Shown here: in pieces, positions 17,391-43,594 of the stretch
How the letters are laid out: the number at the start of each line of letters is the position of its first letter
Numbering within the stretch: position 1 is the stretch's first letter
Virus record (IMG/VR): IMGVR_UViG_3300016464_000060
Coordinates: 1 to 64,000 of that record
Length of the DNA: 64,000 nucleotides
Reading direction: 5' to 3' (one strand)
Source of the DNA: an uncultured virus (IMG/VR IMGVR_UViG_3300016464_000060)
Taxonomy: Duplodnaviria > Heunggongvirae > Uroviricota > Caudoviricetes
The notes under the pieces: generated by a model
Seen by the model: the letters and a program-made list of their open reading frames with translations, nothing else
Database searches by the model: none
Told to the model about the DNA's origin: nothing
Program-made: the position numbers and the translations under genes

Positions 17391-17982
17391 CTTCTGGGCT
17401 TATGTCGGTTTTGTCGGGGGTTATTTCTGTCACATCCTCTACGTCCACGACCCCCATAAATTTGTTGAGCTTCTCCTTGATCTTTTTGTCGATCTCTGAG
17501 TCCGACATGTCGGCCTTCTTGACCTCCACCCGTTCGGTGAATAGGGCAACTTCTGTGATCCGCCCCAGCATGTCTAATGCTTTGAGCCGCACTCTAGCGT
17601 CTGGATGGTTTGTTTCTTCCAAAATTTTGGCCACAGCCATACCGCGCAGGTTCTTAGCCTGCTCCACGAACTCCCAGTCATAGGCAGAGAGCATGGCCAC
17701 CAGATGGCGTACTGCCTCTGGAGTTTTAATTTGTGTAAGTTGGTGTTTGGTTTCCGCCACCGGCGTGTTGGTGGAGAGCGCGGTGAATACTTTTTGCGCT
17801 GCCTTGGCGTTGGCTTCTTTCAAAGCCTTGTCGTCATCATCTACCCCCAGTTTCTCTAGCCACGCCGTTGTGTTGACTTGCGCGTTTAGCGTTTCTTGAG
17901 GGGACACCTTCTCCAAAGGAGTGGCTACCTTTGCTTTGTTCTCCAAGATTGGAGGCTCAAAATCTACCAAATGTTCCAGCAT
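17356..17982 (-). CDS. Probable terminase small subunit
   Basis: Directly upstream of terL; helical, RLKALDMLG motif. Confidence 0.6.
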   Translation of the reverse strand: MLEHLVDFEPPILENKAKVATPLEKVSPQETLNAQVNTTAWLEKLGVDDDDKALKEANAKAAQKVFTALSTNTPVAETKHQLTQIKTPEAVRHLVAMLSAYDWEFVEQAKNLRGMAVAKILEETNHPDARVRLKALDMLGRITEVALFTERVEVKKADMSDSEIDKKIKEKLNKFMGVVDVEDVTEITPDKTDISPEDELQQPKPDAV

Positions 17983-18003
17983 TTATCCCTTACGGCGTGC
18001 GGG

Positions 18004-18032
18004 TTGCGTTCCCGATAGCGCGAGTGTATACT
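18004..18032 (+). promoter_or_regulatory. Sigma70-like promoter
   Basis: TTGCGT-17 bp-TATACT. Confidence 0.55.
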
Positions 18033-18038
18033 AACTTC

Positions 18039-18141
18039 TGGTAGGTGTGCAAGCAGTTGTCAAGTCTGGATGCACATTTGCTTCTCCTGATGGGATAACC
18101 ATCTTCAACCCCGGCGTTCAACAGGCGTCGGGGTTTTTTTA
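18039..18141 (+). ncRNA. Candidate ~100-nt small RNA with anti-SD/anti-start segment
   Basis: Lies between promoter 18004-18032 and terminator 18107-18141; no substantial ORF; three hairpins; 18075-18089 CATTTGCTTCTCCTG is the reverse complement of CAGGAGAAGCAAATG. Confidence 0.5.
18107..18141 (+). terminator. Intrinsic terminator
   Basis: AACCCCGGCGTT-CAACA-GGCGTCGGGGTT followed by a T run. Confidence 0.75.
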
Positions 18142-18148
18142 TTTGTGC

Positions 18149-18164
18149 TGTCAAGCGTTTGACA
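18149..18164. promoter_or_regulatory. Palindrome family B, copy 1 (TGTCAA-N4-TTGACA)
   Basis: TGTCAAGCGTTTGACA; related copies at 27687 and 38583. Confidence 0.6.
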
Positions 18165-18443
18165 AGGTTTCTTGGAATTTTTTATAAAAATTTATGGGGT
18201 AGTAGTTTAGTTTTACAGAAATGTGAAGTGTGGTTACGAAACACTGTTCATAGGACGACGCAGTTCAGCCTTGCAATAGGGTTGGTGGGGGTATGGTGGG
18301 TTAGCCCAAAACGGACTTTTGGAAATTTTTTTTCCCCTACCAATGTCAAACTGAAGGTGTTGGTTCAGAGGAGAGCCAGCAACTTCCGCCACAGATTCGT
18401 GGCAACAACGGGGACAGATGTCCCCATTCACTAGGAGATAGTT

Positions 18444-18830
18444 ATGTCAGTTCAAAAGTATGTCAACGACATCAAAGCAGGTTCGGCTCTTGTCGAGAGC
18501 GGTTACGCTGGACTCAAGTCCATCTATGGTCGCCGTAAGAATCGTGAGGCTGTTCGTGTCGAGTTGCTTCCTTACTTTGCAAAGTCCTACAAAGTCGCAC
18601 TCGTTGCGGGCGAGGGCAAAGCAGAGGGCAAGCAAGTGCTCGACAGCACTGCTGATTCGTATGAGGCTTGTCGCAAGGCTTTGGCTCGCACGCTCGACGC
18701 AATCCTGCCTGCAACCGCAGGTTCGTCTGCAAAGCCAGCATTCACACGCAAGCAACTCGCAGAAGCCAAACGCTTCTTGTCTTTATTCGAGAGCAAGACT
18801 CTCGCCAAGCAAGCCTTAGAGCAACTCTAA
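18444..18830 (+). CDS. Hypothetical protein, first gene of early arm
   Basis: 128 aa, AGGAG RBS, just after first family-A palindrome. Confidence 0.75.
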   Translation: MSVQKYVNDIKAGSALVESGYAGLKSIYGRRKNREAVRVELLPYFAKSYKVALVAGEGKAEGKQVLDSTADSYEACRKALARTLDAILPATAGSSAKPAFTRKQLAEAKRFLSLFESKTLAKQALEQL

Positions 18831-18929
18831 GATTAATCACAACGGGGACATATGTCCCCATTCTTTGCAAGCGGTGCGGGAGCGAGCCTCCCGCGCAATT
18901 CATTTCTTTGTCTAACTCAGGAGATTCCC

Positions 18930-19073: not shown

Positions 19074-19167
19074 GCAGTCAACTCTGCAAGCCTAGCGTGC
19101 TAGGTTTGCGGGGCAATATTGCCCGACATCGGGGACAACTGTCCCCATTACTACAAGGAGAAGCATC

Positions 19168-19859: not shown

Positions 19860-19912
19860 CAACAATGGGGACAAATGTCCCCGTTACTACTAAAGTATCT
19901 ACTATCCAGCAC

Positions 19913-21236: not shown

Positions 21237-21331
21237 ATTTTTAACGGGGACATTTGTCCCCATTCGGTAAACAGCATTATGTTGGGCGATGCCGTTTACC
21301 TTCCCGAAACTAGCCCACAAGGAGAAAGCAA

Positions 21332-21574
21332 ATGTTAAAAGTCTTATTCAAAGTTAAGTGCATAGACGCTAGTGACAGTTATGACTATTTGGAATTGGGG
21401 CAGGTGTATGGCGTGAGTCGTGTCAGCGCACCCAACACCATCGGTCTTGTCAACACGCGTGGCAAAGACAAGGGAGAAATAACACCCAACGAAGAAGAGG
21501 TGTATTACATCGAGGGCATGCCCGCCGAATGGGATGCCAGCCGTTTTGAAATTGTTGAAGGAGAGACAGTATGA
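21332..21574 (+). CDS. Hypothetical protein
   Basis: 80 aa; KVKCID...LELGQVY...ASRFEIV. Confidence 0.65.
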   Translation: MLKVLFKVKCIDASDSYDYLELGQVYGVSRVSAPNTIGLVNTRGKDKGEITPNEEEVYYIEGMPAEWDASRFEIVEGETV

Positions 21575-22895: not shown

Positions 22896-22963
22896 CCAAA
22901 GGGGTAGGCATACCCCATTCATCGGGGACATCTGTCCCCATTCATTCAATCAGGAGATATTAA

Positions 22964-24679
22964 ATGAAACTTTTCTATGTAACTTTCCGTGACCAAAATG
23001 ACGAGCAAACAGAACGCGTCATCATCGGTCAAATCGGTCATCGTTTCTCATACACACGCATCATGCCTACTTGTCATCATGGCGTGTTCAGTGAGAGTAT
23101 CCACAATCCACCACGCTTTACGCGTTACTTCGAGACACGCCATCGTGCAGTGCTCGGGTGCAGGACTGCTGAAGAGGTAGTCATGTGTTTGAACGACCCA
23201 TACCCCAAGTCGCTCATCGTCACGCAGTTCACGCCTGAGCAAGCCAAGTCTTTGCGCACTGTCGGTATTGAGATGTATAAAGAGATAATTTATGCGTTCT
23301 ATCAAGCGTGTAACAACGGCAACTCAAACCGCATCTACAGCAACATGGTGTTTAGACTTAATGCTAAGCAACACCAGCGCGAATACTTTGACTGGCATGG
23401 CAACAATGTGTATCCGCAAAACTACATGGCAATTCGTGCGTTGTATCGTGACCTCGGTGCGTTAGTTGCCCAAGTCGAGCAAGATGGTGACAGCACGCCA
23501 GTCGATGAGTTCCTCATGGACAGATGCGACAGGGCAGGGGTCGATGCCGTTGCGTTGTATGACAGCATCAGCAGTAAAGTCAATCTCGGTCTGACGCATT
23601 GCGACTGCGGGCATCTTGAGTATGACCACAACACAGAAAATGTGCGCAGTGACACATGGTGTCGTCAATGCTTCGAGGATGACGCTGTGTATGTCGAGAA
23701 TCGTGACGAGTATTGGTCACGAGACGATGCGTATTACCACGAGCGCGATGGTTGCTATTACTCGTATGATGAGGATGAGTATGACGAGGATGACGACAGT
23801 CAAGACTCCGATGGACTCATGTCTTACAGCACCAATGTGCTCAACTTTCTCAGCAAGGACTTGACCATCCAGTCGTCTCCGCATGGTGACTTCCTCATGG
23901 GTATCGAGTTCGAGATGGAGACTACAGACGGACACTATGTCAACGATGCAGTCGAGGATGTGCGTGCCCAACTGGGCGAAGAGTATTGCGTGTGTAAGTC
24001 TGACGGCTCGCTGGGTCATCTTGGCTTAGAGATTGTTACTGCCCCGCGTGGTCTTGCCGAGCACATCAGACGCTTCAAGGGCTGGGATGTCAAGTCGCAC
24101 TATCGTGCATGGGATACCAAGCGTTGCGGTCTGCATGTGCACATCGACTCTCGTGCGTTCACGCAGATGACTCTCGGCAAGTTCATCATGCTCATCAACA
24201 GCGATACCAATGTCGAGTTCATACGCAAGATTGCAGGTCGTCATCCACACACCGATGACCAAGCCCGCAGTTACTGCGCGTCCGAGCGCCAAGAGGTTGT
24301 TGTCAATCCCAAGAAGGCAGTCAAGGACAAGTCGCATGAGCGCTATCGCATGGTCAATCTGCAGAACTTGAGCGCTAGAGAGTCCAAGCGTTTGACTAGC
24401 ACCACCGCATATGGCGGTCGCTATGACACTGTCGAGTTGCGTATCTTTCGCGCATCTCTCAGCAAGACGCGTATGTTGGCGCAGATAGAGTTCACCCATG
24501 CGTGTGTGTGCTTCTGTCGTGTCGCATCGTGGCGTGACCTCAATCAAATCAGTTTCGTCAAGTATCTCAAGACTGTCTCCAGTCAGTATCCCAACCTTGC
24601 CGATTGGTATGGCGTGCGTAGACGCTCAGCCAAGGTTACTGCCGAGTCACAGTGCCGTGACGCAGTCGAGTCCGTTTAA
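22964..24679 (+). CDS. Putative amidoligase (COOH-NH2 ligase, glutamate-cysteine ligase-like fold) with Cys-rich and acidic N-terminal part
   Basis: MGIEFE, KSDGSL, LEIVT, CGLHVHI, RYRMVN, TVELRIF motifs. Confidence 0.85.
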   Translation: MKLFYVTFRDQNDEQTERVIIGQIGHRFSYTRIMPTCHHGVFSESIHNPPRFTRYFETRHRAVLGCRTAEEVVMCLNDPYPKSLIVTQFTPEQAKSLRTVGIEMYKEIIYAFYQACNNGNSNRIYSNMVFRLNAKQHQREYFDWHGNNVYPQNYMAIRALYRDLGALVAQVEQDGDSTPVDEFLMDRCDRAGVDAVALYDSISSKVNLGLTHCDCGHLEYDHNTENVRSDTWCRQCFEDDAVYVENRDEYWSRDDAYYHERDGCYYSYDEDEYDEDDDSQDSDGLMSYSTNVLNFLSKDLTIQSSPHGDFLMGIEFEMETTDGHYVNDAVEDVRAQLGEEYCVCKSDGSLGHLGLEIVTAPRGLAEHIRRFKGWDVKSHYRAWDTKRCGLHVHIDSRAFTQMTLGKFIMLINSDTNVEFIRKIAGRHPHTDDQARSYCASERQEVVVNPKKAVKDKSHERYRMVNLQNLSARESKRLTSTTAYGGRYDTVELRIFRASLSKTRMLAQIEFTHACVCFCRVASWRDLNQISFVKYLKTVSSQYPNLADWYGVRRRSAKVTAESQCRDAVESV

Positions 24680-24706
24680 TTTCAATAACCATCAGGAGTA
24701 TTTATT

Positions 24707-25792
24707 ATGTGTTTAATCATTACAGGTCAGTCATCCAAGATTCGTTCAACTCTGCTCGACACAGCAGGTATGCTCGGCGAAATCTATTCATCCAACCCCG
24801 ATGGTATTGGCATCATGTATGCAACAGCCAAGGGACTCAAAGTTGTCAAGACACTCCCCAAGAATGTCAACGATGCCACAGCGTTCATCCGCAAGTTACC
24901 TAGTGACGAGCGCGAACTTGCTATCCACTTCCGTTGGACTACGCATGGCGACACCGACATGCTCAACTGCCATCCATACGATGTCGTCACGGGCTATGTT
25001 GCGATGATGCACAACGGCGTGTTGCATACGGGTAATAGTGCAGACACTTCCAAGTCTGACACTTGGCACTTCATCAATGACTATCTCAAAGATGCTGTGC
25101 ATGACGCGCCCAATCTCGTGCATACCGAGGGCTTCCTCACCTTGCTTGCTGACTTCATCGGTGACAACCGCTTCGTGTTCATGGACGGCGATGGGCGTAT
25201 GTCTCATGTCAACTATGACCAAGGCATCGAGCACGATGGTCTGTGGTTCAGCAACACATATGCATGGAAGCCAGCGACTCTCATCCCCAACTACTACAAG
25301 TCCAGCAAGCACTACAACTATGCCAACTACAACAGCGCATACAACAACTACATGGACGATGAGTGGGAGATGGAGACATGGAACAACTCGTTCGCAAGCA
25401 AGTCTCTCGACTACAAGCCTGTGTCTGCGCATAGCGCACAGTGGCAAGACGATGACTATGAGGACGCTGTTACATCTGCCGAGATGTGCCAAGCACTCAA
25501 CGAGTGCGATGTCGATACTGTCGAGTCATACCTTGAGACCTTCCCTATCACATTCATCAACACCGTCTACAACGAGATGTCGCCCATCGCCACACGCTAC
25601 ACAACCATCAATGACCTAGTGAGTTACGAGCAAGATGTCTACAAGGCGTTGCTTGACTGTGACCTCGCTGCGTTGCATGACTTCGTGCGTGACGGCAAGT
25701 CTGCGTCCGTTGTAGCCGAGGTGATGTGCTACTACATGGAGTGGTATTACAAGAACGAGACAACTCGCCCTCTGTTGCCCGCCATGATGTAA
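24707..25792 (+). CDS. Class II (Ntn) glutamine amidotransferase
   Basis: N-terminal MC, NPDGIG, HFRWTTHG, NCHPY, MMHNG, SDT. Confidence 0.9.
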   Translation: MCLIITGQSSKIRSTLLDTAGMLGEIYSSNPDGIGIMYATAKGLKVVKTLPKNVNDATAFIRKLPSDERELAIHFRWTTHGDTDMLNCHPYDVVTGYVAMMHNGVLHTGNSADTSKSDTWHFINDYLKDAVHDAPNLVHTEGFLTLLADFIGDNRFVFMDGDGRMSHVNYDQGIEHDGLWFSNTYAWKPATLIPNYYKSSKHYNYANYNSAYNNYMDDEWEMETWNNSFASKSLDYKPVSAHSAQWQDDDYEDAVTSAEMCQALNECDVDTVESYLETFPITFINTVYNEMSPIATRYTTINDLVSYEQDVYKALLDCDLAALHDFVRDGKSASVVAEVMCYYMEWYYKNETTRPLLPAMM

Positions 25793-25841: not shown

Positions 25842-25860
25842 AAACCAAAGGAGAAAGCAA

Positions 25861-27684
25861 ATGAAAAAGTATCAGATACAGGTGCGCCTGTCTTACTATG
25901 TTTGGGTGGATGTTGAAGCAGAGCACGAGCACTCTGCCGTAGACCAAGCCGTTCGCAAAGCATGGTTCGAAATGGACAAACAACGCGGGTGCTGGGGCGA
26001 AGAGCCCAAGGTGCTAGACATAATCGTTAAACCAGAGGAGAAAGCAAATGCGTAAGAGAACTATAACGGTATCAGAACTAATTGAGGTTCTAAAAGAAAT
26101 GCCACAAGACCATGAAGTCTATTGGCATGGAGAAAACAAACGCATAAAGATAAGTGATGTTGTAGATGTGGGTGATGTAGTGGACTTGTATAACTATGAA
26201 GGAGAAAGCAAATGTATGAAGTAATTAAAACCAATGATGGGTTCATGGTGCGTGACAAACACACAGGGGAATATGCCCATGACGAGAACGGGGATAACTT
26301 GTTTGACTCAGAGGAAGAAGCAAAGAAGTTGTTGCTGATAACGCGTATGCGTGTCGCAATAGACCAGTTATTTGAAACAGTGGAAGAGGGGGATGCAGAT
26401 TCTGTGGCGCACTTAGCCTTGAGATTTAAACGACTGTTTGGAACTAAGGAGAAAGCAAATGAGTGACTTAGACATACTGATACAAGAGATAGCACGCATA
26501 GCCCTTGAAGACAGCTATACGCTGAGACGCATAGGGCATGAGTTAGATGTAAGTGATGAAGAACTACAACGAGTTGCGCAATACCTCAACGCATTATTAG
26601 AAGGAGAAAGCAAATGAACGAGAAAGAAATTAAAGCGTTAGATGCAGTGGTTAACTGGGTGCTAAGAGAAGAGCCCGAAGAGGCTAGTAGTGAGCACATA
26701 TACAACCATGCACAGACACTTAAAACATTTTTAGCCATGAAATCAATGACTAAAGACGAACGCCTAGCGCGTGTGTGCGACTTACTTTTTAAACTAAACA
26801 GAGAGGAGATATTGCGAGACGGGGACTGGTGGTATGGCACAGACAACTATGACTTTAATTTCTTTGATTGGGAAGGAACGCCATACCATATAAATGTGAC
26901 TGTGTATGACACAACGCGCAAGGATTTCCAATACTCAGAAGAGCAACAAGTTTTTAGTAAAAAGATTTTTATAGAGGGAAGAATATGAAACGATTGATAG
27001 ACATTATTGGACGCGCATACGACTTGAGTGTGCAAGTGCAAGACGACAAGATAGACCCCGCATTAGCCGAAGAGGTATCGAGCGAGTGTGCCGAATTCTT
27101 GGCGATATGGGACGAGGACTGGGGTGCGTTTGACTCTATGGATAGCGTAGACCAAGAGTTGTGGCGCATGATTACGCAAATTAAACAAGGAGCAAAAGCA
27201 TGAGTTTCATAACCAAGATAGAGCAAGAGTATCCTGACTTTTATGTGTTGCACATGGAAGATGGGCGAGTGATAGGTATCACAAGTGAGTGCATCGTTGT
27301 CTATGAAAACATAGACGATGTGTTTGAGGGGGGTCTTAAAGACAGACCCACAATAAATTTAATCAAGGAGGAAACAGAATGACAGATAAAACATATAACG
27401 GATGGACTAACTACGCCACATGGCGTGTGAACTTGGAGATATTTGATGGGCATCCCTTGTCGGACTTCCCGTTTGACCAAGGTGCGTCTGATGAACCCGA
27501 ACTCATAGACCCCTACGAGTTAAGCCTTGCACTCAAAGATTATGTGGAGAACTACATCTATGGTGCGGGTGGGGGCAATGGCAACATTGCCGTGGACTAC
27601 GCGCTTGCGTTCATATCAGATGTGAATTGGTATGAAATTGCCACACACATGATTGAAGACGCTGTCGAGGAGAGTAGCCACTAA
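25861..27684 (+). CDS. Run of small hypothetical genes (25861-26055, 26048-26224, 26212-26466, 26459-26617, 26614-26988, 26985-27203, 27200-27382, 27379-27684)
   Basis: Overlapping starts and stops; 26048 (MRKRTITVSELIE) and 26459 (MSDLDILIQE) translated by hand; the last has the phage motif YNGWTNYATWRVNL. Confidence 0.7.
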
Positions 27685-27725: not shown

Positions 27726-27746
27726 TAGACACAAAGGAGAAAGCAA

Positions 27747-28307
27747 ATGCCAGATATAAAAACTGCGCTAACAAATGTTCTCTCGCAATGGGAACAAGAC
27801 GAGAAAAAACAAATCACTAAACAACAGGAGAAGCCAATGGCTAAACACTTATTCACCACCACAAACAATGTCTCACGCGAGACCTTTAACTACATCAAAG
27901 CAAACCCCAACAAAACCACAGCAGAAGTGGCAAAAGCCTTAGAAAAGAAAGGATTCAAGGAAGGTTCAGTCACATCCATCTGCGCTCAGTTATCCAAGCA
28001 AGGGCAAGTGTTAAAGGATGGCTACACGAAGCGCTTGGTGGCCATAGGTAGCGAGTATCAACCACTCAAAGCAGCCAAACACTTCAAGACAACTACACCC
28101 CCCACACGCAAGGTTATTAAGATAACTAAGCGCGAGAAGACTATGCAAGATGCTGGCCTTGCCGCTATTGCCCCACAAGAGCAAGCCGTTCGTAGGGCAG
28201 CGCTGATACTATTAGATGACTTCGACCCGCATGACCTTGTGAATAAACTCTCCGTCATGCAAGCCCGTCAGTTGTATGACTTACTCAAACAAATCTTCGG
28301 AGGCTAA
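27747..28307 (+). CDS. Hypothetical protein, possible winged-helix DNA-binding
   Basis: FNYIKANPNKTTAEVAKAL...SVTSICAQLSKQGQV; second RBS/ATG at 27837. Confidence 0.6.
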   Translation: MPDIKTALTNVLSQWEQDEKKQITKQQEKPMAKHLFTTTNNVSRETFNYIKANPNKTTAEVAKALEKKGFKEGSVTSICAQLSKQGQVLKDGYTKRLVAIGSEYQPLKAAKHFKTTTPPTRKVIKITKREKTMQDAGLAAIAPQEQAVRRAALILLDDFDPHDLVNKLSVMQARQLYDLLKQIFGG

Positions 28308-30427: not shown

Positions 30428-30939
30428 ACAAACAGCTATTGATCGGGTGCGGGTCACTCAAGAACAAACGCCTATCTCTTGACGGGACGAACCAATGGGA
30501 AGACCTGACAACGCTTGACTACAACCCTGACCACAGACCTGATGTGGTGTGGAATTTGATGGAGTTTCCACTGCCGTTTGAGGACAACACTTTTGATGAG
30601 GTGCATGCCTACGAGGTACTGGAGCACACAGGTGCACAAGGAGACTACAAGTTTTTCTTTGCGCAGTTCTCTGAGTTCTGGCGCATCTTGCGTCCTAACG
30701 GACACATGCTAGTGACTTGCCCCTCACGCCATTCAGCATGGGCATGGGGTGACCCGAGCCACACGCGGGTACTACAGCAAGAGCACTTGATCTTCTTGAG
30801 CCAAGCAGAGTACAGCAAGCAGATAGGTAAGACATCTATGTCTGACTTCAGAAACATATACAAGGCCGACTTCCATACCTTGTGGGTACAGGAGGACGAG
30901 AACGCTTTGAACTTCATCATCAAGGCAATCAAGCCATGA
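30424..30939 (+). CDS. Class I SAM-dependent methyltransferase-like protein
   Basis: LLIGCG, LPFEDNTFDEV, EVLEH, EFWRILRPNG, DPSH. Confidence 0.8.
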   Translation: MNKQLLIGCGSLKNKRLSLDGTNQWEDLTTLDYNPDHRPDVVWNLMEFPLPFEDNTFDEVHAYEVLEHTGAQGDYKFFFAQFSEFWRILRPNGHMLVTCPSRHSAWAWGDPSHTRVLQQEHLIFLSQAEYSKQIGKTSMSDFRNIYKADFHTLWVQEDENALNFIIKAIKP

Positions 30940-31181
30940 AATGCCCCGTGTGCGGCGCATGGACGCTAGTTAAACAAACAACTAAATCACCCACATTTGG
31001 GTATACAAGGAGAAGAGAATGTGCAAATGAACACCGATTCACAACCAAAGAAGTCGTCATCCCGCAAGAGGCCATTGACGAAGAACGCAGAGTTAATCTT
31101 GCGAATAACCTCGAACGACTGGAATCCATTCGAGCGAGCAGACCCAAGCGTGTTAGAAAAAGTAATGCGCGAATCTACTAA
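30936..31181 (+). CDS. Zn-ribbon protein (NrdR N-terminal-like)
   Basis: MKCPVCG...RRRECANEHRFTTKE. Confidence 0.7.
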   Translation: MKCPVCGAWTLVKQTTKSPTFGYTRRRECANEHRFTTKEVVIPQEAIDEERRVNLANNLERLESIRASRPKRVRKSNARIY

Positions 31182-31272
31182 ACAACGCATTCATCAAATG
31201 CAGGAGGCCACATGGTAAATAAATAACCTACGCTACAACCACAAACAATTTTTTAAATAACAGGAGAAGTAA

Positions 31273-31938
31273 ATGGTTACCACCACTAAAGAAGAAACAG
31301 GCGTTATCTCTGCACCGAAGTTCGGTACAGTTAAATTCATCATTGAGGGCACAGCCCCTTTGGTTGTTGAACGCTTTAGTAAGAAAGCAGAGTTGATGGC
31401 TAAGATGGCAGAAGGTCCATCCGCCAAGAACAAGAAGAACCGCGAAGCGCGCGACTACGACAAAGAAGCAGAGGAAGCACGCTACAGAAGCCCCGAGAAA
31501 TGGGAAGGTATGAACGCTGCAGCCTTTCGTGCGGCCATGATCAGTGCGTGTCGTCTGGTCGGATTCAAGATGACGCTGGCTAAACTATCCACGTTCGTCG
31601 AAGCCGATGGCTTTGATGTAAATGATGGCGTCCCTCTTGTGCGTATTTATGGGCAAAGCCATACTTACACAGCACATACAAGAAACGCTACTGGCGTGGT
31701 GGATGTGCGCTCGCGTCCTATGTATCGCAACTGGGCGGCTTGCCTGTCTGTGCGCTACGACATGGATCAGTTCAAGATGTCAGATGTACTCAACCTCGTA
31801 GCGCGTTGCGGTATGCAGGTTGGTATTGGGGCAGGCCGACCCGACAGCAAAGCAAGTGCTGGTTGTGGCTTTGGTCTTTTTAGAGTTGTGCCTACTGAAC
31901 AAGCGAAAGGAGTGATGAAGAAGTACGGCATTAAATAA
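31273..31938 (+). CDS. Stand-alone RAMP/Cas7-like protein
   Basis: 221 aa; first strand FIIEGTAPL, helix AAAFRAAMISA (cf. RAMP PxSSxKGxxR), RPMYRNW, C-terminal Gly-rich loop GIGAGRP...GCGFGLF. Confidence 0.65.
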   Translation: MVTTTKEETGVISAPKFGTVKFIIEGTAPLVVERFSKKAELMAKMAEGPSAKNKKNREARDYDKEAEEARYRSPEKWEGMNAAAFRAAMISACRLVGFKMTLAKLSTFVEADGFDVNDGVPLVRIYGQSHTYTAHTRNATGVVDVRSRPMYRNWAACLSVRYDMDQFKMSDVLNLVARCGMQVGIGAGRPDSKASAGCGFGLFRVVPTEQAKGVMKKYGIK

Positions 31939-33790: not shown

Positions 33791-35758
33791 ATGAGCAAAC
33801 CATTCGACAAAATAATAACGATTGACTTCGAGACGCGGTGGGCTAAGAAAGACTACACGCTATCGAAGTTAACAACGGAGGAGTACATACGTGATGAACG
33901 ATTCAAGGCATTCGGACTATGCGCCCATGAGTATGGAAGTGATGAACCAATTAGATGGGTTAGTGGAAGAGACTTACCTGAATTCTTTTCTGGAATCGAC
34001 TGGGGACGAACCGCCGTGCTTGCGCATAACGCACAGTTCGATATATCCATCCTCGAGTGGGTCTACGATATACACCCGGCCTTTATCTTCGACACGCTAT
34101 CAATGGCACGCGCTCTACGAGGCGTGGAAGTTGGCAATAGTTTGGCCAGACTTGCAGAGGATTTTGGACTCCCAGCAAAGGGCACCGCTGTTCATTCAAC
34201 TGATGGAGTTCACGAGCTTCACCCCGCGCTCGAGCGAGAACTCGCTGAGTACTGCAAACATGATGTGTTTTTGTGCGAGGAAATATTCAAAAGGTTGGTT
34301 GATGCCTATCCACAGAAGGAACTCAGACTTATAGACATGACCTTGAAGATGTACACGCGCCCCGTGCTTGTACTAGACCCCAACATGTTGACCGACGCCA
34401 TACTAGAAGAGAAGGAGAAGCGTGATGAATTACTACAGAGGCTCGGCGTGGAGGAAACTTCGCTCGCGTCGAATCCAAAGTTTGCAGCCCTACTTGAAGC
34501 GCTTGGGGTGGCTGTCCCGACCAAGACCAGTAAAACTACCGGCAAGCAAACACTTGCTCTGGCAAAGAACGATGCGATGTTCCAAGCGCTCCTCAACGGC
34601 GAACGTGAAGACGTTGCGCTCCTTTGTGAAGCGCGTCTTCGGGTTAAATCTACAACCGAGCGTACCCGTGCTCAACGGTTCCTTGACATTAGCCAACGTG
34701 GCTCCCTACCAGTACCTCTCTCCTACTACGGTGCGGCGACGGGTCGTTGGACGGCGGCAAAAGGCTCGGCGATTAACATGCAAAACCTCAAGCGAGGTTC
34801 ATTCCTACGCAAAGCGGTTATGGCTCCCGAAGGGCAAAGTCTGGTCGTCGGCGACCTCTCGCAAATTGAGCCGCGAGTACTCGCGTGGCTTTCGGATTAC
34901 ACAGAGATGCTTGACATCTTTCGGGCAGGTGGTGACCCTTATGCCGCGTTTGGTGCGCAGATGTTTAACATTCTCGGACTTAGTAAAGAATCGCACCCTG
35001 ATCTACGGCAGTCTGCGAAGAGCGCACTCTTGGGTTGCGGCTACGGCCTTGGCTGGGCATCGTTTGCCTCGCAGTTACTTACGGGCTTCCTTGGTGCTCC
35101 GCCGGTCAGGTACGACATGGCGTTCGCAAAGAAACTCGGCGTTACTAAAGAGGCTGTCGAGCGCTTCATAGAGTGGGACGACAACGTCACCAAAATGCGG
35201 GAGATTCCCCACACATGCACAGAGAAGGAATTACTGATTCACTGCATGGCCGCTAAGCGCATCATCGATATCTACCGCTCGACTGCTACGCCTGTGGTGG
35301 ACTTGTGGAATATGTTCGGTCAGTTGATTGAGACGAGCCTGTATGGGGGTAGGGAATACACCTATAAGTGCCTGACCTTCAAGAAGGAGCAGATCGTTCT
35401 GCCCTCTGGCATGAGCCTGTTGTACCCCAATCTCAAGCGCACCAAGGATGCGCAAGGCAGAGCCCAGTGGACATACGGTGAAGATTCGACTAAACTGTAC
35501 GCAGGCAAGATAACAAACAACGTCACGCAGGGCGTAGCAAGATGCGTGATGACAGACGGGATGCTCCGCGTAGCAAAGAGATATCCAGTCAAAGGCACAG
35601 TGCATGACGAGTTAATCGCCGTTGTGCCAGATGCAGAGGTGGATGACGCTAAGACTTGGGTCTTGGCGCAAATGACTATGGAGCCACGGTACATGCCGGG
35701 GATTCCATTAGAGGCTGACGGTGGCGCACACCGTCGTTATGGGTTAGCAAAAAATTAG
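33791..35758 (+). CDS. DNA polymerase family A with 3'-5' exonuclease
   Basis: IDFET, AHNAQFD, YCKHD, ATGRW, NMQN, DLSQIEPR, RQSAKSALLGCGYG, TVHDE. Confidence 0.95.
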   Translation: MSKPFDKIITIDFETRWAKKDYTLSKLTTEEYIRDERFKAFGLCAHEYGSDEPIRWVSGRDLPEFFSGIDWGRTAVLAHNAQFDISILEWVYDIHPAFIFDTLSMARALRGVEVGNSLARLAEDFGLPAKGTAVHSTDGVHELHPALERELAEYCKHDVFLCEEIFKRLVDAYPQKELRLIDMTLKMYTRPVLVLDPNMLTDAILEEKEKRDELLQRLGVEETSLASNPKFAALLEALGVAVPTKTSKTTGKQTLALAKNDAMFQALLNGEREDVALLCEARLRVKSTTERTRAQRFLDISQRGSLPVPLSYYGAATGRWTAAKGSAINMQNLKRGSFLRKAVMAPEGQSLVVGDLSQIEPRVLAWLSDYTEMLDIFRAGGDPYAAFGAQMFNILGLSKESHPDLRQSAKSALLGCGYGLGWASFASQLLTGFLGAPPVRYDMAFAKKLGVTKEAVERFIEWDDNVTKMREIPHTCTEKELLIHCMAAKRIIDIYRSTATPVVDLWNMFGQLIETSLYGGREYTYKCLTFKKEQIVLPSGMSLLYPNLKRTKDAQGRAQWTYGEDSTKLYAGKITNNVTQGVARCVMTDGMLRVAKRYPVKGTVHDELIAVVPDAEVDDAKTWVLAQMTMEPRYMPGIPLEADGGAHRRYGLAKN

Positions 35759-35765
35759 GAGAAGC

Positions 35766-36071
35766 ATGCAACTACCAAAGAAAATTAGAGTTGGTAACAA
35801 GTGGTACAGCGTCGAGGTTGTCGAAGCTATGGTCGAGAAAGGTTACATGGGCAAGGTTTATTACCCTGAACAGAAGATCAAAATCGGCTTAACAAGCACA
35901 CAGACAGGCAAGAAGTTTGCAACCACGGATGTTAACGATACGTTCTGGCACGAGTTAGTCCACGCAATACTCAACGACATGGGGTATGACACCTTAAACC
36001 GCAACGAGCGTTTCGTAACTGGCTTTGCCAAGCGATTAAACAAAGCAATAGAGACAGCGAGATTTGAATGA
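35766..36071 (+). CDS. Small HExxH metallopeptidase-like protein
   Basis: TFWHELVHAIL...ERFV. Confidence 0.65.
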   Translation: MQLPKKIRVGNKWYSVEVVEAMVEKGYMGKVYYPEQKIKIGLTSTQTGKKFATTDVNDTFWHELVHAILNDMGYDTLNRNERFVTGFAKRLNKAIETARFE

Positions 36072-36971: not shown

Positions 36972-36985
36972 CATCAGAGAAGCAA

Positions 36986-38548
36986 ATGGAAATCATCGAA
37001 GACAAAGCACTCTTACTACGAACCAGAAGCCCAGATAAGTACAGCATCATCCCCCGCAGTCAAGTCGTTGAGCAATACGCTGACGGCTCTGCAGATGTCG
37101 CTGTCTTCTGGGGGCTGGACGAGGCGCGGGTATTAAAAAATATGGGGGTCAAGAACGTCCCCTCACCCATCACCAGACGCTACAACTGGCCGGGGCGACA
37201 CAAGCCTATGGCACATCAGATCGAAACGTCTGCGTTCCTCACACTACATCGCAAAGCGTTCGTGTTCTCCGAACCCGGCACGGGCAAGACGCTCTCAGCA
37301 TTGTGGGCGGCTGACTACTTGATGCAACGCGGTGAGGTGCGTCGCTGTTTGATCTTGTGTCCCTTGTCGATCATGCAGTCAGCGTGGATGCAGGACTTAA
37401 ACGCTAGCATCATCCACCGTAGCGCAGTCATTGCCCACCACCCACAGGCGGCACGGCGCATCGAGATGGTTCAGCAGAACTACGACTTCGTCATCACAAA
37501 CTACGAAGGGCTTAACTTAATTGCAGACGAGGTCAATGCCAACGGCAAGTTTGACTTAGTTATTGTGGACGAGGCCAACGCATACAAGACCGTGACCACC
37601 AGACGCTGGAAGGCGTTGCAGTCAATCATCAAGCCCGATACTTTGTTGTGGATGATGACGGGCACACCCGCCTCACAGTCGCCAGCCGATGCGTATGGCT
37701 TGGCTAAGTTGGTCAACCCCAACAACGTGCCTCGATTCTTTACTGCTTGGCGTGATCAAGTGATGAACAAAATTACCCAGTTCAAGTGGGCACCAAAGGC
37801 TAACGCTACCGAGACAGTCCATGCCGCGCTACAACCCGCTATTAGGTTCACCAAAGACCAATGCTTGGACTTACCGCCCGTCATCACCATGACCCGCGAG
37901 GTGCCCCTAACACCACAGCAAAAGAAATACTACGAGTTGCTCAAGGAGCGCATGCTCATCCAAGCCGCAGGCGAGACGATCAGCGCAGTCAACGCGGCGG
38001 CAGGCGTGTCCAAGCTGTTGCAAATTTCCTGTGGTGCTGCCTACACCGATGATGGTGAGGTGGTGGAGTTTGACGCAACGCCTCGCCTGTCGGTGCTAGA
38101 AGAAATCTTGGAAGAGACTTCGCGCAAGGTGATTGTGTTTGCTATGTTTACAAGCAGTATCGACGCCATCATTAACCACCTCAACAAGCAAGGCATAGCA
38201 GCCGAGATGATTCGTGGGGACGTACCGGCATCCAAGCGTGGTGACATCATCCGCAGATTCCAGAATGACCCCGAACCCCGCATCCTTGTGATGCAACCGC
38301 AAGCAACTGCACACGGCATTACTTTGACTGCCGCTGACACAGTTGTGTTCTATGGCCCATTGATGTCGGTGGAGCAGTACATCCAATGTATTGCCCGCGC
38401 TGATCGCAAGGGTCAGACGTCCGACAAGGTTACTGTTATGCACATAGAGAGTAGCCCGATAGAGAAGAAGATGTTTAAAGCATTGACTTCCAAGGTGAGC
38501 GACCACTCACTATTGACCCAGTTATTCGAGAGCGAAATTAAATCTTGA
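36986..38548 (+). CDS. SNF2-family helicase
   Basis: EPGTGKT, IVDEA, MTGTP, HGITL, QCIARADRKGQ. Confidence 0.9.
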   Translation: MEIIEDKALLLRTRSPDKYSIIPRSQVVEQYADGSADVAVFWGLDEARVLKNMGVKNVPSPITRRYNWPGRHKPMAHQIETSAFLTLHRKAFVFSEPGTGKTLSALWAADYLMQRGEVRRCLILCPLSIMQSAWMQDLNASIIHRSAVIAHHPQAARRIEMVQQNYDFVITNYEGLNLIADEVNANGKFDLVIVDEANAYKTVTTRRWKALQSIIKPDTLLWMMTGTPASQSPADAYGLAKLVNPNNVPRFFTAWRDQVMNKITQFKWAPKANATETVHAALQPAIRFTKDQCLDLPPVITMTREVPLTPQQKKYYELLKERMLIQAAGETISAVNAAAGVSKLLQISCGAAYTDDGEVVEFDATPRLSVLEEILEETSRKVIVFAMFTSSIDAIINHLNKQGIAAEMIRGDVPASKRGDIIRRFQNDPEPRILVMQPQATAHGITLTAADTVVFYGPLMSVEQYIQCIARADRKGQTSDKVTVMHIESSPIEKKMFKALTSKVSDHSLLTQLFESEIKS

Positions 38549-38554
38549 AAGGAG

Positions 38555-38598
38555 TTTGCAAACAATTTAATTTCATGTACACTGTCAAACCTTAGACA
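38555..38598 (+). promoter_or_regulatory. Sigma70-like promoter with palindrome family B copy 3 at the start site
   Basis: TTTGCA(A)...TACACT (38578) then TGTCAAACCTTAGACA (38583-38598). Confidence 0.55.
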
Positions 38599-40521: not shown

Positions 40522-43419
40522 ATGAATCCGCTTGAATTCCTTGCGGTTGTTTTGCCGTCTGCGGGTCACGGAAGTTACTGCGCGGCAGAGTTAACTAAGA
40601 AAAAAGAGCACCTATTCGTCGAGCACTTGGACGATTTCTACCCCAAGGTGGACACTTGGGTTGCCAACGAATGCGATGTCTTCTTTGCGCTGGCTACCTT
40701 TGATGAGAACAACAAACGTAAGGCCGAGAACGCCCGCTTTATCAAGGCGCTGTTCATTGACATGGACGGCTACGCCACCAAGAAGCAGGCCGCATACGCG
40801 CTCAAAGCGTTCCTTGCCGAAACTGGGTTGGACATACTGGGCTCGCCTTGGATTGTCGGCTCTGGTGGTGGACTGCATTGCTATTGGCCGTTTGAAGAAG
40901 CCGTCGAGATTGAGGAGTGGAAGCCCCTTGCCGAGAACTTTAAACGCCTGTGCAAGCAACAAAAGCTAAGCATCGACATGACCGTGACGGCTGACGCCGC
41001 CCGTGTGCTACGCATACCCGAGACGACCAACTTTAAGAAGAAGTACGAAACCCCACGCCCAGTCAGACTGCTGGCAGAGGGTGACATATTTAACTTTGAG
41101 AGTTTGAAAGCTCACGTAGTGAGCCAGTTAAAGAGTATTGCACCAGCACCGACAGCGTCAGCCATTCCGGGCAAACGCCCAACCAACGCCCCAGTTGTAC
41201 AACCATCAACGACTGCCGTGACGCTGTTTGAGAACAGCACGACTAAGTTCGCCAAAATCTTAAAGCGCACCAAGGACGGCACGGGATGTGCACAGTTACG
41301 CTACTACGCAGAGAACGCTAGTGACGAGGGCATGGAGCCGTTGTGGCGTGGGTGGTTGAGCATTGCACAGAAGTGTCAGGACGCACCGAAGGCCGCCATA
41401 TGGTTGACCGAGTTGCACCCATACACCGAAGAACGCATGCACCAGAAGCTGGCAGAGATCAAGGGACCCTATCCTTGCGTCAAGTTCGATAGCGAGAACC
41501 CCGGCATTTGTGACGGGTGCCCCCACTTTGGCAAGATAACCAACCCACTAGCGCTTGGACGAGAACTGATGCTAGACACATCGGTTAAAGAAATTGAAGT
41601 CCATGTAACCACGGATAGCCCATCCATAAACGAGGAAGTTCGTAAAGTCCTTCGCCCCACCCCTCCCAAGGGCTATGCCTATGGTGCACGGGGTGGGGTA
41701 TTTATGGAGAAAGAAGATGTGGATGCCGAAGGCAACAAGACCAAGCGCCAGATCATGATCTTGCCCCACGAGTTATTCGTGGTGGATATCCTGCGGCACA
41801 ACGGGGAGCACACGGTGCATATGCTGAGCCTACGCCCCGATGGGGTGGAGACAGTCACGATGTCACAGAAGGCGGTAGTCAGTAAAGACGAAACCGTCAA
41901 AGCGCTTGCGCTTCAAAACATTATTGCTTCGTATGGTGCGGGCAATGACAAAAACTTATTTGATTATGTGCGGGCTTGTGTCGAACAGGCAAGCACAGGA
42001 AAGGCTCCCGTGAGAGTACCCACTAACTACGGCTGGCAAGAGAACGATACGTTCGTGTTTGCTGGCAAGATTTTCTCTAAGGGTTTACCCCCAGTATCCG
42101 TGCCTATGCCCGGCTTAGAGAACATCGTATCCAACACCAAACCCACAGGAACGATTGAGGCATGGCGCTCATTTGTGCAGATGCTAGTCAAGAAAGGAAT
42201 GTGGGAGCATTTGACGATCATGCTGGCAGGAGCCAGCGCTCCGTTGATGCGCTTCACAGGTATCTATGGCATTACATACCACTGCGGTTCAACCGAGTCA
42301 GGCACAGGCAAGTCGTTGGCGCTTGAGGCTGCCGCCTCTATTTGGGGTCACCCAGTCCACTACAGAACGGGCAAGAGCACTTCGCCCGTGGCCATGCAAC
42401 AGCGCCTTGGATTGCTGTGCAGTATGCCCCTGATAACGGACGAGTTGACCAGCAAGAACCGCGCTAACTTTGAATGGTTGCCTGAGTTCCTACTGGATAT
42501 GACAGAAGGGCGGGGCAAGGAGCGTATGGAGTCAGGCGCTAACAAGGAGCGTATCAACCTCTCCACATGGATGACCAACGCCATCATGTCATCCAATACC
42601 CACGTAGTAGACGGCTTGACTGGTGGACGCAAGCACTCGTCTGAGGGCGAGTTGCGCCGTTTGCTGGAATTTATCCTGACCCAAGAGTTAACTTGGGAGC
42701 CATACGAGATTGAGATCATCAAGTCCCTGCACAATAACTACGCAGTCGCTGGCTACATGCTGTCGCAGTACATGGTGGACAACCTAGATCGTCTGCATAC
42801 GCTCGTGCCTGAGTCAGTTACGCAGATGTACAAGGAGTTCGGGGCTACCAACGACGAGCGTTTCTGGATGGCCGGCATCGGCACCATCGTCACAGCGGCG
42901 ATCATTATGGGGGACGCTGGCATCGTCAACATTCCTGTTAAGCCTATCATTGCTTGTTTGAAGAAAGTTGTGTCCTCGATGCGGGGCAACATTAAAGCCA
43001 ACGCCCGCAATGCAGAAGATGTGCTCAACTCATATGTGCGCGAGAACTACGGCCACTTTATTGTGGTGCGTAACCTAGAGTCGGGCATCTTGGCAGAACT
43101 AGGCGGGGGTGGAGAAGTTGACAAAGCCACAACACGCTCGGAGATTATGGGTCGCGTAGAGCACGGGTTTACACCAGACCACATAGACTTTTATATTGAG
43201 GAGCAACTGCTTAAAGCCTACTGTTCGTCAATGAGTTTTGGGTATGCCGACTTTAAGCGTCAGTTAGCGGCGCAGTTTACCGTGTCGCATATGGCTAAGA
43301 AAGACATGACGGCTAAGACGCAGGGACCCCAAATGCGTGTGGGTGTGTTAAAAATAAGCCGTCGCATTTCTGATATGGACGATGAAGCTAAAAATACATT
43401 ATCCGTGGGATCAGACTGA
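40522..43419 (+). CDS. Primase-helicase fusion (RepB-like primase, Zn-binding region, DUF927-type helicase)
   Basis: LFIDMD, SGGGLHCYW, DAARVLRIP, EPLW, CDGCPH, SGTGKS, LITDE. Confidence 0.85.
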   Translation: MNPLEFLAVVLPSAGHGSYCAAELTKKKEHLFVEHLDDFYPKVDTWVANECDVFFALATFDENNKRKAENARFIKALFIDMDGYATKKQAAYALKAFLAETGLDILGSPWIVGSGGGLHCYWPFEEAVEIEEWKPLAENFKRLCKQQKLSIDMTVTADAARVLRIPETTNFKKKYETPRPVRLLAEGDIFNFESLKAHVVSQLKSIAPAPTASAIPGKRPTNAPVVQPSTTAVTLFENSTTKFAKILKRTKDGTGCAQLRYYAENASDEGMEPLWRGWLSIAQKCQDAPKAAIWLTELHPYTEERMHQKLAEIKGPYPCVKFDSENPGICDGCPHFGKITNPLALGRELMLDTSVKEIEVHVTTDSPSINEEVRKVLRPTPPKGYAYGARGGVFMEKEDVDAEGNKTKRQIMILPHELFVVDILRHNGEHTVHMLSLRPDGVETVTMSQKAVVSKDETVKALALQNIIASYGAGNDKNLFDYVRACVEQASTGKAPVRVPTNYGWQENDTFVFAGKIFSKGLPPVSVPMPGLENIVSNTKPTGTIEAWRSFVQMLVKKGMWEHLTIMLAGASAPLMRFTGIYGITYHCGSTESGTGKSLALEAAASIWGHPVHYRTGKSTSPVAMQQRLGLLCSMPLITDELTSKNRANFEWLPEFLLDMTEGRGKERMESGANKERINLSTWMTNAIMSSNTHVVDGLTGGRKHSSEGELRRLLEFILTQELTWEPYEIEIIKSLHNNYAVAGYMLSQYMVDNLDRLHTLVPESVTQMYKEFGATNDERFWMAGIGTIVTAAIIMGDAGIVNIPVKPIIACLKKVVSSMRGNIKANARNAEDVLNSYVRENYGHFIVVRNLESGILAELGGGGEVDKATTRSEIMGRVEHGFTPDHIDFYIEEQLLKAYCSSMSFGYADFKRQLAAQFTVSHMAKKDMTAKTQGPQMRVGVLKISRRISDMDDEAKNTLSVGSD

Positions 43420-43594
43420 GAGGGGGCAGGGGTTCTTTATCCCCTGCCTTGATACGGACGGCGTGCGTGAAGAGGGATTAAAGCAGGCAGTACGCCTGCG
43501 TATCCTCGATGCCAAAGCCTACCCCGCAGTTCGCAACGACCTTATTGGGGTATGGTTTTATCGGCCACCTCACGCATCCCAGAAGCAAACTTGA
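43382..43594 (+). CDS. Small hypothetical protein, last gene of plus-strand arm
   Basis: YPW...GQGFFIPCLD. Confidence 0.55.
   Translation: MKLKIHYPWDQTERGQGFFIPCLDTDGVREEGLKQAVRLRILDAKAYPAVRNDLIGVWFYRPPHASQKQT

Follow-up and report, generated by a model that had tools for sequence, protein, structure and literature searches.

The c4 antisense RNA (P1/P7) belongs to an immunity system of temperate phages, is cut from the leader of the operon that it controls and acts on the same transcript. The P22 sar and lambda OOP RNAs are cis-encoded phage antisense RNAs transcribed opposite their target gene, and C/U-rich anti-Shine-Dalgarno small RNAs (sRNAs) of bacteria include AbcR1 and NfeR1 of rhizobia, RsaE/RoxS and the toxic sRNA of Betaproteobacteria (RF02278). 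Regulatory RNAs of virulent and of uncultured phages are, to our knowledge, almost unknown. The genome of an uncultured phage of the Caudoviricetes (IMG/VR record IMGVR_UViG_3300016464_000060, 68,169 bp with terminal repeats), of which bases 1–64000 were analysed and are here called the window, very probably carries a real small-RNA gene at 18004–18142 on the plus strand, as judged from the sequence and that of its relatives. The predicted RNA family is kept in about 150 contigs of one uncultured phage clade. Its pyrimidine-rich seed has changed in step with the start region of the phage's SNF2-type helicase gene, and the RNA most likely throttles translation of that helicase by base pairing.

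The RNA resembles sar and OOP in being short, in having a promoter and a terminator of its own within a phage control region and in its predicted pairing over a translation start. Its supported target is unlinked, however, although the RNA might also act in cis on the late leader. Like c4 it is a small, structured phage RNA that would block translation of a phage gene around the ribosome-binding site (PMC12197685), but it has its own promoter and terminator, lies in a divergent control region and has its supported target 19 kb away. A single-stranded pyrimidine motif between hairpins, an intrinsic terminator and matches to several mRNA ribosome-binding regions are shared with the bacterial C/U-seed sRNAs (compare PMC8844928 and PMC10746234); those RNAs, however, are cell-encoded and serve cellular regulons, the RNA described here belongs to none of them by sequence or structure, and its seed reaches as far as the start codon and follows a single phage gene. 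sRNAs of a phage or a satellite that pair with unlinked mRNAs during lytic growth are described for lambda, where one acts in trans on host replication (bioRxiv 10.1101/2024.10.31.621285), and for the ICP1/PLE system, where one also acts in trans (bioRxiv 10.1101/2022.04.08.487710). These belong to other phages, target a host gene or satellite/phage genes, have no sequence relation to the present RNA and, in the accessible portions of the two preprints, are not described as anti-ribosome-site seeds that co-vary with a phage helicase start. Phage sRNAs in the literature consulted, as far as its accessible text goes, come from prophages, lambda, P1/P7 or a phage satellite; a 2025 review gives c4 and AsxR as examples, and the words 'lytic phage' and 'helicase' were not found in the text available from it (PMC12197685). 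The words sRNA, non-coding, antisense and intergenic are not present in the transcriptome paper of Pelagibacter phage HTVC027P, and no description of such an RNA was found in the literature searched.

Searched against Rfam 15 at gathering thresholds, the whole window gave no match. At E ≤ 10 the best rows for the plus strand of 17950–18450 reached 13.6–21.2 bits against thresholds of 39–102 (RF02278, 16 versus 50 bits; RF00519, 13.6 versus 41; RF02837, 18.3 versus 49.5), and c4 gave no row over this interval even at that level. The element therefore appears to work like the anti-ribosome-site RNAs, c4 and the bacterial C/U-seed sRNAs, yet matches no known family. A run of seven U and a UUC linker, such as an Hfq-dependent sRNA would have, are present.

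The element sits in the sole divergent control region (461 bp) of the window. Leftwards from 17982 run the minus-strand genes of the late arm, namely a 208-aa gene (ATG at 17982), the large terminase, the portal and others, and rightwards, from 18444 to 43419, the plus-strand genes of the early/middle arm, which encode DNA polymerase, a PD-(D/E)XK nuclease, an SNF2-type helicase and a primase-helicase. The parts of the unit are the following.

18004–18009, plus strand: -35-like hexamer TTGCGT of the sRNA promoter, read from the sequence, its initial TTG conserved in relatives
18025–18032, plus strand: TG and -10 hexamer TATACT (hexamer at 18027–18032, with a 17-nt spacer from TTGCGT)
18040–18142, plus strand: predicted sRNA transcript, ~103 nt, from the fold and covariance-model matches
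18040–18082, plus strand: stem-loop 1, outer helix 18040–18051 with 18071–18082, the 3' arm containing CAUUUGCU
18075–18089, plus strand: extended seed CAUUUGCUUCUCCUG, with the free toehold UCUCCU at 18083–18088
18089–18103, plus strand: stem-loop 2 (GAUGG/CCAUC), from the minimum-energy fold and covariation
18107–18142, plus strand: intrinsic terminator, a 12-bp stem at 18107–18135 followed by a U-run

Relatives were collected with the 208-aa neighbour protein as query, which gave 80 viral contigs (53–96% identity); 76 of the 80 loci have at least 150 nt upstream and hold 55 distinct sequences. A second set was obtained with a 53%-identical protein as query (304 relatives in the viral collection, 80 kept). 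The unit was found at the identical place and on the identical strand in all 76 first-set relatives with upstream sequence, and covariance model R2 matches all 76 second-set loci with upstream sequence, with no other match at E ≤ 0.1 in 341,850 bases on both strands. On the plus strand of the window the element was located by model R1 at 18039–18142 (22.4 bits) and by R2 at 18050–18141 (47.8 bits), and it is single-copy in the genome. The closest cultured phages by large terminase, HTVC027P (51%) and the lake phage DSL-LC04 (52%), do not carry it, as found with a regular expression at the terminase neighbourhoods and with R1 on the whole genomes; neither the DNA of 17800–18600 (blastn) nor the 208-aa protein (tblastn) found a match in the phage collection.

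The -10 is TAnAnT in all 55 distinct relatives (TACACT in 30, TATACT in 16, TATATT in 6 and TATAGT in 3), is immediately preceded by TG in 52 and has a TTG-initial hexamer 16–18 nt upstream in 50. It is this conservation, and not a scanner call, that supports the promoter, from which transcription would start 7–8 nt past the -10. The terminator was found by the scanner as a stem at 18107–18135 of 12 pairs, 7 of them G-C, with a run of seven U after it, and a short, U-rich linker (UUC) separates it from stem-loop 2. Its own promoter and an intrinsic terminator are seen to bound a short, predicted non-coding transcript, the arrangement looked for in a trans-acting sRNA. The RNA is 72 to 130 nt long among the 55 distinct sequences, a variation that rules out a conserved reading frame; chance, or a decayed gene start, was considered as an origin and is excluded by the conservation data.

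The plus strand of 18040–18142 folds with -44.8 kcal/mol (z = -5.2; none of 200 shuffles as good) and the minus strand with -28.7 kcal/mol (z = -2.55). Three hairpins are shared by all 55 folds, in the order stem 1, free pyrimidine run, stem 2, linker and terminator, and in each of the 55 the plus strand is stabler than the minus strand (mean -38.6 versus -29.9 kcal/mol). Bases of the pyrimidine run are unpaired with a mean probability of 0.78, compared with 0.41 over the full RNA, and the value for the run lies above 0.5 in all 55 sequences.

MAFFT and RNAalifold on all 55 sequences gave 4 pairs only, because indels wreck the alignment, and an alignment of an 11-sequence subset, which was partly misaligned, was replaced by the per-sequence folds, an ungapped alignment of one clade (A4, 10 sequences) and covariance models. 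In A4, 97.7% of the cells are paired, compared with 36.5–51.9% when the partners are slid; stem 1 is here rich in G-U pairs, which become mismatches when read on the opposite strand, so that the fold is specific to the plus strand. A covariance model from one clade only finds the window element (18039–18142, plus strand) and the other clades, with two weak off-place matches and no others in 630 kb. The family alignment A5 (52 distinct rows) has 92.6% of cells paired against 42.2–47.3% slid, 23 of 26 pairs changed on both sides, and 261 compensated cells against 73.8 ± 6.9 in shuffles, none of 500 of which reaches 261. For the second set (A6) the values are 88.9% against 45.6–57.1%, and 245 compensated cells against 93.3 ± 8.1 (0 of 500 shuffles reach 245), while the A6 count of double-changed pairs was reached by 58 of 500 shuffles and alone is not significant. 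Helix 1 is 89.3% paired in A5, with 12 of 13 pairs changed on both sides among the 52 distinct relatives; helix 2 is 94.0% paired in A5 and 82.7% in A6, with six of six pairs double-changed in either; helix 3, the terminator, is 96.8% and 98.1% paired in the two sets, with compensatory changes present. Conserved secondary structure with compensatory changes, as looked for in a trans-acting sRNA, is hence found in A4, A5 and A6, of which the A4 count, together with the per-sequence folds, is free of model-fitting bias.

An earlier note on this DNA had read at this place a promoter TTGCGT-17-TATACT, some 100 non-coding nt and a strong terminator, and had proposed a stand-alone plus-strand RNA gene at the early/late divergence point. 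The letters and coordinates of the promoter are correct and conserved in relatives, the terminator coincides with the scanner match at 18107–18135, and the gene itself is borne out by conservation, covariance models and gene layout; covariation in related phages, named there as a check, is abundant (92.6% and 88.9% paired, versus 42–57% slid). The proposed fold holds in that the seed is flanked by hairpins, but UUGCUUCUCCU, taken to be single-stranded, is not wholly free, CAUUUGCU being paired in stem 1.

Indeed, in the minimum-energy fold UCUCCU (18083–18088) is the only unpaired part of the extended seed, whose reverse complement is CAGGAGAAGCAAATG. The pyrimidine motif is kept in both sets of relatives, with second-set variants such as CUUUCUCCUU, CUCUCUCCU and CUUCUCUU; an accessible, conserved seed is found in the pyrimidine run, and the part complementary to spacer and AUG is paired in stem 1. 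The target that carries the argument is the following.

36974–36991, plus strand: start region of the SNF2-family helicase (ATG 36986; Pfam domains SNF2-rel_dom and Helicase_C), 12/12 match at 36977–36988, -18.9 to -20.5 kcal/mol

Contigs that hold both the sRNA and the helicase start were compared, which gave 14 non-redundant lineages. Own pairs of seed and start have a mean of -20.3 kcal/mol and cross pairs of -15.7 kcal/mol, and none of 200,000 permutations was as good; for the first eight lineages alone 4 of 40,320 permutations were. Own pairs reach -18.9 kcal/mol or lower in 11 of the 14 lineages, and the own seed ranked 1st to 4th of 14 in 11 lineages. Matched states that involve indels on both partners are GCAAAUG/CAUUUGC, GCAAUG/CAUUGC and GCAUG/CAUGC, and further ones are GAGAAGC/GCUUCUC, GAGAAAGC/GCUUUCUC, GAGAGC/GCUCUC and GAGAGAGC/GCUCUCUC. 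The spacer next to the AUG varies as AAA, AA, A or AG and the stretch before GC as AAG, AAAG, AG or AGAG, in both cases matched in the sRNA, and the second codon is matched too (AUGCA with UGCAU; AUGGA with UCCAU, UUCAU or UCCGU). Where CAU has become CGU or CUGU, pairing with AUG is retained by G:U wobbles, which means that the pairing works only as RNA with RNA.

An internal control was provided by nine ortholog groups, each present in at least 4 of 7 genomes. The helicase has an own-minus-cross difference of -5.4 kcal/mol, compared with -1.4 to +1.3 kcal/mol for the other eight groups, and complementarity kept in evolution is found for the helicase start only. Better own than cross pairing at loci 19 kb apart argues for selection, since neutral drift would not maintain it, and as the helicase start often lacks GGAG, its conservation goes beyond ribosome binding. 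On these comparisons the helicase start region is the phylogenetically supported target and is, by all appearance, under selection for pairing.

The sRNA and helicase loci were also observed to resemble each other beyond the ribosome-binding site, with indels, ATCAG(G)AGAAGCAAATG being present at both; an inverted duplication of the helicase start region may have given rise to the sRNA gene.

Other start regions of the early/middle arm match the seed in this phage.

31261–31275, plus strand: start region of gene 31273 (221 aa), 15/15 pairs including one G:U, -24.5 kcal/mol
27825–27839, plus strand: in-frame internal start of gene 27747 (ATG 27837), 14/15 match, -24.8 kcal/mol in the unbiased scan
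35757–35768, plus strand: start region of gene 35766 (101 aa), -19.1 to -22.5 kcal/mol
21321–21334, plus strand: GGAGAAAGCAAATG start, copy 1 of 7, -20.3 kcal/mol with one bulged A
25850–25863, plus strand: GGAGAAAGCAAATG start, copy 2 of 7, -19.6 kcal/mol
26037–26050, plus strand: GGAGAAAGCAAATG start, copy 3 of 7, -19.7 kcal/mol
26201–26214, plus strand: GGAGAAAGCAAATG start, copy 4 of 7, -20.9 kcal/mol
26448–26461, plus strand: GGAGAAAGCAAATG start, copy 5 of 7, -19.6 kcal/mol
26603–26616, plus strand: GGAGAAAGCAAATG start, copy 6 of 7, -19.6 kcal/mol
27736–27749, plus strand: GGAGAAAGCAAATG start, copy 7 of 7, -19.6 kcal/mol

The seven repeated starts (ATGs at 21332, 25861, 26048, 26212, 26459, 26614 and 27747) head plus-strand ORFs of 52–186 aa. 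With a 17-nt seed and rough gene calls made for this analysis, on which the counts rest, duplexes of -18 kcal/mol or lower are predicted at 12 of the 48 early/middle start regions and at none of the 33 late ones, the best of which reaches -16.8 kcal/mol. An unbiased scan of both strands of the whole window placed 14 of its 23 best sites in start regions of plus-strand ORFs, and of all called genes of the window, 31273 has the start region with the strongest match (31261–31275). The start of gene 35766 has an own-versus-cross difference of just -1.4 kcal/mol across 7 genomes. When own seeds were set against own start-region sets in eight genomes, the own or a near-identical seed was best in four, a weak and mixed outcome. 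It is plausible from these matches that the seven GGAGAAAGCAAATG starts and the start of gene 31273 are extra targets in this phage only.

The best non-self site of the whole-window duplex scan (-25.6 kcal/mol) is AAGGAGAAGAGAATGTGCA at 31007–31025, within gene 30936–31181, where an ORF of three codons begins with it; up to the TGCA of stem 1 it is similar to the sRNA's reverse complement.

The complementarities listed in the earlier note are all correct (31261–31275 with one G:U, 36977–36988 with 12/12, 27825–27839 with one mismatch), the seven repeated starts do pair with one bulge and stand before the ORFs just described, and the exposed anti-Shine-Dalgarno seed complementary to the phage's own plus-strand starts is recovered by fold and duplex scans. 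The label 'RAMP gene' given there to gene 31273 is unsupported, this gene having no Pfam match and a single PHROG of unassigned function (phrog_4652), and of the proposed shut-off of early/middle translation the part concerning pairing with the SNF2 helicase start is supported, whereas a general effect is not, eight of nine conserved gene groups being without a lineage-specific match.

What the sequences show by computation is that promoter, fold, strand and terminator are conserved, that the seed is exposed, that it is complementary to the start regions named and that it co-varies with the helicase start. We think it rather probable that 18040–18142 on the plus strand is an independently transcribed sRNA of ~100 nt which blocks the helicase start by pairing. 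A host-type promoter (TTGnnn, 17/18-nt spacer, TG-TAYAnT) would make a stable RNA of three hairpins, whose free UCUCCU would serve as a toehold, docking where phage mRNAs have their purine-rich ribosome-binding region. From there, pairing would spread 5'-wards by strand displacement into the 3' arm of stem 1 (CAUUUGCU, CAUUUGC), over spacer and AUG, so that the 30S subunit is kept off, initiation is blocked and translation of the helicase mRNA is lowered. The same block would probably act in this phage at genes 31273, 27747/27837 and 35766 and at the seven small genes. Transcription, pairing in the cell, the repressive effect and the time of action in infection are what we infer from these features.

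Several points weigh against this explanation. The promoter scanner made no call at the sRNA promoter (8 of 12 matches, threshold 9). The four best matching sequencing runs (X1–X4) are labelled RNA-Seq and flagged as probably DNA (contigs), and among the holders of the element the run search found none on record as RNA. A5 and A6 were fitted to the model, and their pair counts lean towards the structure. Half of the 15-nt complement (CAUUUGCU) is held in the conserved stem, and in co-folds with 70-nt targets the net gain is -5.8 to -14.7 kcal/mol for seven motif targets and 0 to -10.2 kcal/mol for five controls, a modest discrimination. The helicase start is the top-ranked site in lineages G004 and G022 and 4th to 5th in G005 and G003, but 14th in G001, 21st in the 26-kb arm of the window and 100th in G002, and its match is missing in 3 of the 14 lineages (G002, -15.1; G021, -8.5; G025, -11.4 kcal/mol). 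Gene 31273 has no homologue in the eight compared regions, and the seven GGAGAAAGCAAATG starts pair with the seed only via a bulge and are not conserved in relatives. The target scans covered phage sequence alone. Last, the minus strand of the element has a Shine-Dalgarno sequence with an ATG 4–10 nt downstream in 48 of the 55 distinct sequences.

In G021 (the contig of L140; loci L207 and L208) the pairing stretch was observed to be deleted from the helicase start, and the best site for the sRNA there is a near-identical helicase-type start, first codons ATGCAAAT included, on an unrelated 88-aa ORF.

The minus-strand start just mentioned speaks for a different, though unlikely, explanation, by which the element is a cis-antisense regulator of the late operon, or is itself the minus-strand leader, with pairing or polymerase collision blocking late expression; such cis-antisense action may also coexist with action in trans. 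A further 4 of the 55 sequences have GTG or TTG in place of ATG, the sRNA gene fills most of the space beside the first late gene, and the divergent region is the sole possible place for the promoter of that gene. In nine sequences (six G005-type, L054, L060 and L072) the minus-strand ORF meets no stop as far as the extracted sequence goes, which includes the first 21 nt of the 208-aa gene, and in L060 and the G005-type clade it continues in frame into this gene. Against this, the peptides are not conserved: the ORFs are of 2–37 aa (MCIQT here), lack a stop in the extracted stretch or run on into the next gene, and the peptides bear no relation to one another, sharing only such letters as the conserved promoter DNA dictates. 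In three sequences a start codon is missing altogether. CAU has two partners, the 5' arm of stem 1 and the target AUG, and its changes are mostly to CGU, by which both RNA pairings are kept through wobble and the ATG is destroyed. The better fold of the plus strand in 55/55 and the G-U richness of stem 1 also argue against it, no minus-strand late promoter was found by the scanner or on reading 18040–18200, and a helicase start 19 kb off that changes with the seed is left unexplained. Among the 55 sequences neither start codon, frame nor peptide is conserved on the minus strand, and a conserved coding function of the mini-ORF is unlikely on this comparison; a role of the site as late-operon leader is possible. 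The case that the earlier note had set against itself, in which the 15-mer is only the ribosome-binding site and ATG of MCIQT and not conserved, does not apply, the RNA being conserved and the peptides unrelated.

It is doubtful, and we rate it as quite unlikely, that the RNA is a generic anti-Shine-Dalgarno RNA which acts through UCUCCU alone on host or phage mRNAs with a strong AGGAG, the longer matches being by-products of stem 1 and of a phage-wide consensus of start regions. UCUCCU is indeed the only unpaired part in the fold, the control start 24707 with its strong Shine-Dalgarno sequence gains -10.2 kcal/mol, equal to some motif targets, a lineage-specific match is missing in eight of nine ortholog groups, and the repeated motif AGGAGAAAGCA is not confined to this phage, nine copies being present in the distant relative G005. 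On the other hand, seeds with CUCC fixed and the flanks shuffled give a mean of 0.09 targets and a maximum of 8, and none of 1000 reaches the observed 12. In many lineages the helicase start is without GGAG (AGAGAAG, GAGAGAG) and nonetheless follows the sRNA in spacer length and in the letters next to the AUG, and some seeds have themselves lost CUCC (CUUCUCUU), mirroring the helicase-type AGAGAAG.

A combination of actions in trans and in cis, which we regard as a long shot, would make the RNA a two-faced developmental timer. It would hold the helicase, and in some lineages small middle genes, in trans and the late leader in cis, until matching middle mRNAs titrate the RNA away and the late operon is set free. 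On this reading the RNA, fully complementary to the leader of this packaging/structural operon, would find in that leader a helicase-like decoy start. That the element is instead a cis-acting leader, an attenuator or a protein-binding RNA of the early operon, with transcripts stopping at 18135 unless a factor permits read-through, is highly improbable. In favour are its place ahead of the early genes, the orientation that it shares with them and the terminator at its end. Against it, this terminator is strong (12 bp and 7 U), a separate conserved promoter-like block follows it in relatives (TTGACA/TAGACA, ~18 nt, TATAAA/TATAAT), and neither the exposed conserved seed nor the helicase co-variation is given a reason.

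With blocking of the helicase start by pairing as the favoured explanation, the element is a candidate sRNA that has a specific target backed by compensatory evolution, which is rare for such candidates. The natural lineage pairs (window, G022 GAGAGAGCAAAUGCA, G005 GGAGAAAGCAUG and G003) form a ready set of compensatory mutants, which makes the idea directly testable, and if it is true, control of phage translation at the RNA level may be a common and overlooked strategy.

Other elements were noted in and beyond the control region. Directly after the sRNA terminator, 18150–18188 holds a conserved palindrome TGTCAAGCGTTTGACA (TGTCTAnnGTTAGACA in relatives), which overlaps the -35 of the plus-strand promoter-like block TTGACA-18-TATAAA and looks like an operator on an early promoter. 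Further blocks conserved in relatives lie at 18205–18310, TTACAGAAA..GGTTACGAAACAGTGTTCAT, which is possibly a second promoter, and a G-rich run TGGGGGTATGGTGGGTTAG; these blocks could represent an origin, a packaging signal or the boundary of a repeat. A sigma-54 promoter on the minus strand (TGGCAACTGCTTGCA) was considered and rejected, the GG-to-GC spacing being one base short of the consensus and the window having TTGACA there. The palindromic hairpin GGGGACAnnTGTCCCC occurs six times in the window against 0.01 expected by chance, most copies just upstream of an early gene.

18410–18425, 18844–18859, 19131–19146, 19867–19882, 21246–21261 and 22924–22939: copies of GGGGACAnnTGTCCCC

Relatives have their own versions at similar frequency (AACCGGGGACATCATGTCCCCGGTT in G004, CATTCGAGGACA..TGTCCTCGAATC in G003), and the repeated hairpins could be processing sites, terminators or phage-specific promoter hairpins.

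The only other TGTAYACT of the window is at 38555–38583, with TTTGCA 17 nt upstream of TACACT; it adjoins the end of the helicase gene and precedes gene 38619 (DUF7307, Pam3 gp33-like), and from its letters may be a second promoter of the sRNA-promoter type, two matches in the window against 4 expected by chance being a count that alone is not significant. No tRNA or tmRNA gene was found in the window. An ORF of 3315 aa at 43542–53489 on the minus strand has no PHROG match; its sole Pfam domain, towards the C-terminal end, is LPD38 ('large polyvalent protein associated domain 38'). This ORF, together with the repeated hairpins, had suggested an N4-like phage, an idea that was dropped: the ORF is not an N4-type polymerase by any test run, it is without PHROG match, and the terminase relatives are of the HTVC023P type. 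Two adjoining early/middle genes at 22964–25792 weakly resemble amidoligase (PHROGs) and, below the Pfam cut-off, class-II glutamine amidotransferase, and on that similarity may form a small modification or metabolic module. In G001 (the contig of L018) the helicase and the DNA polymerase, at 41367–43793 and 45362–48217, each match in two pieces; both are single open frames, of 812 and 956 aa, and hence imply insertions, in frame and a few hundred residues long, that may be inteins.

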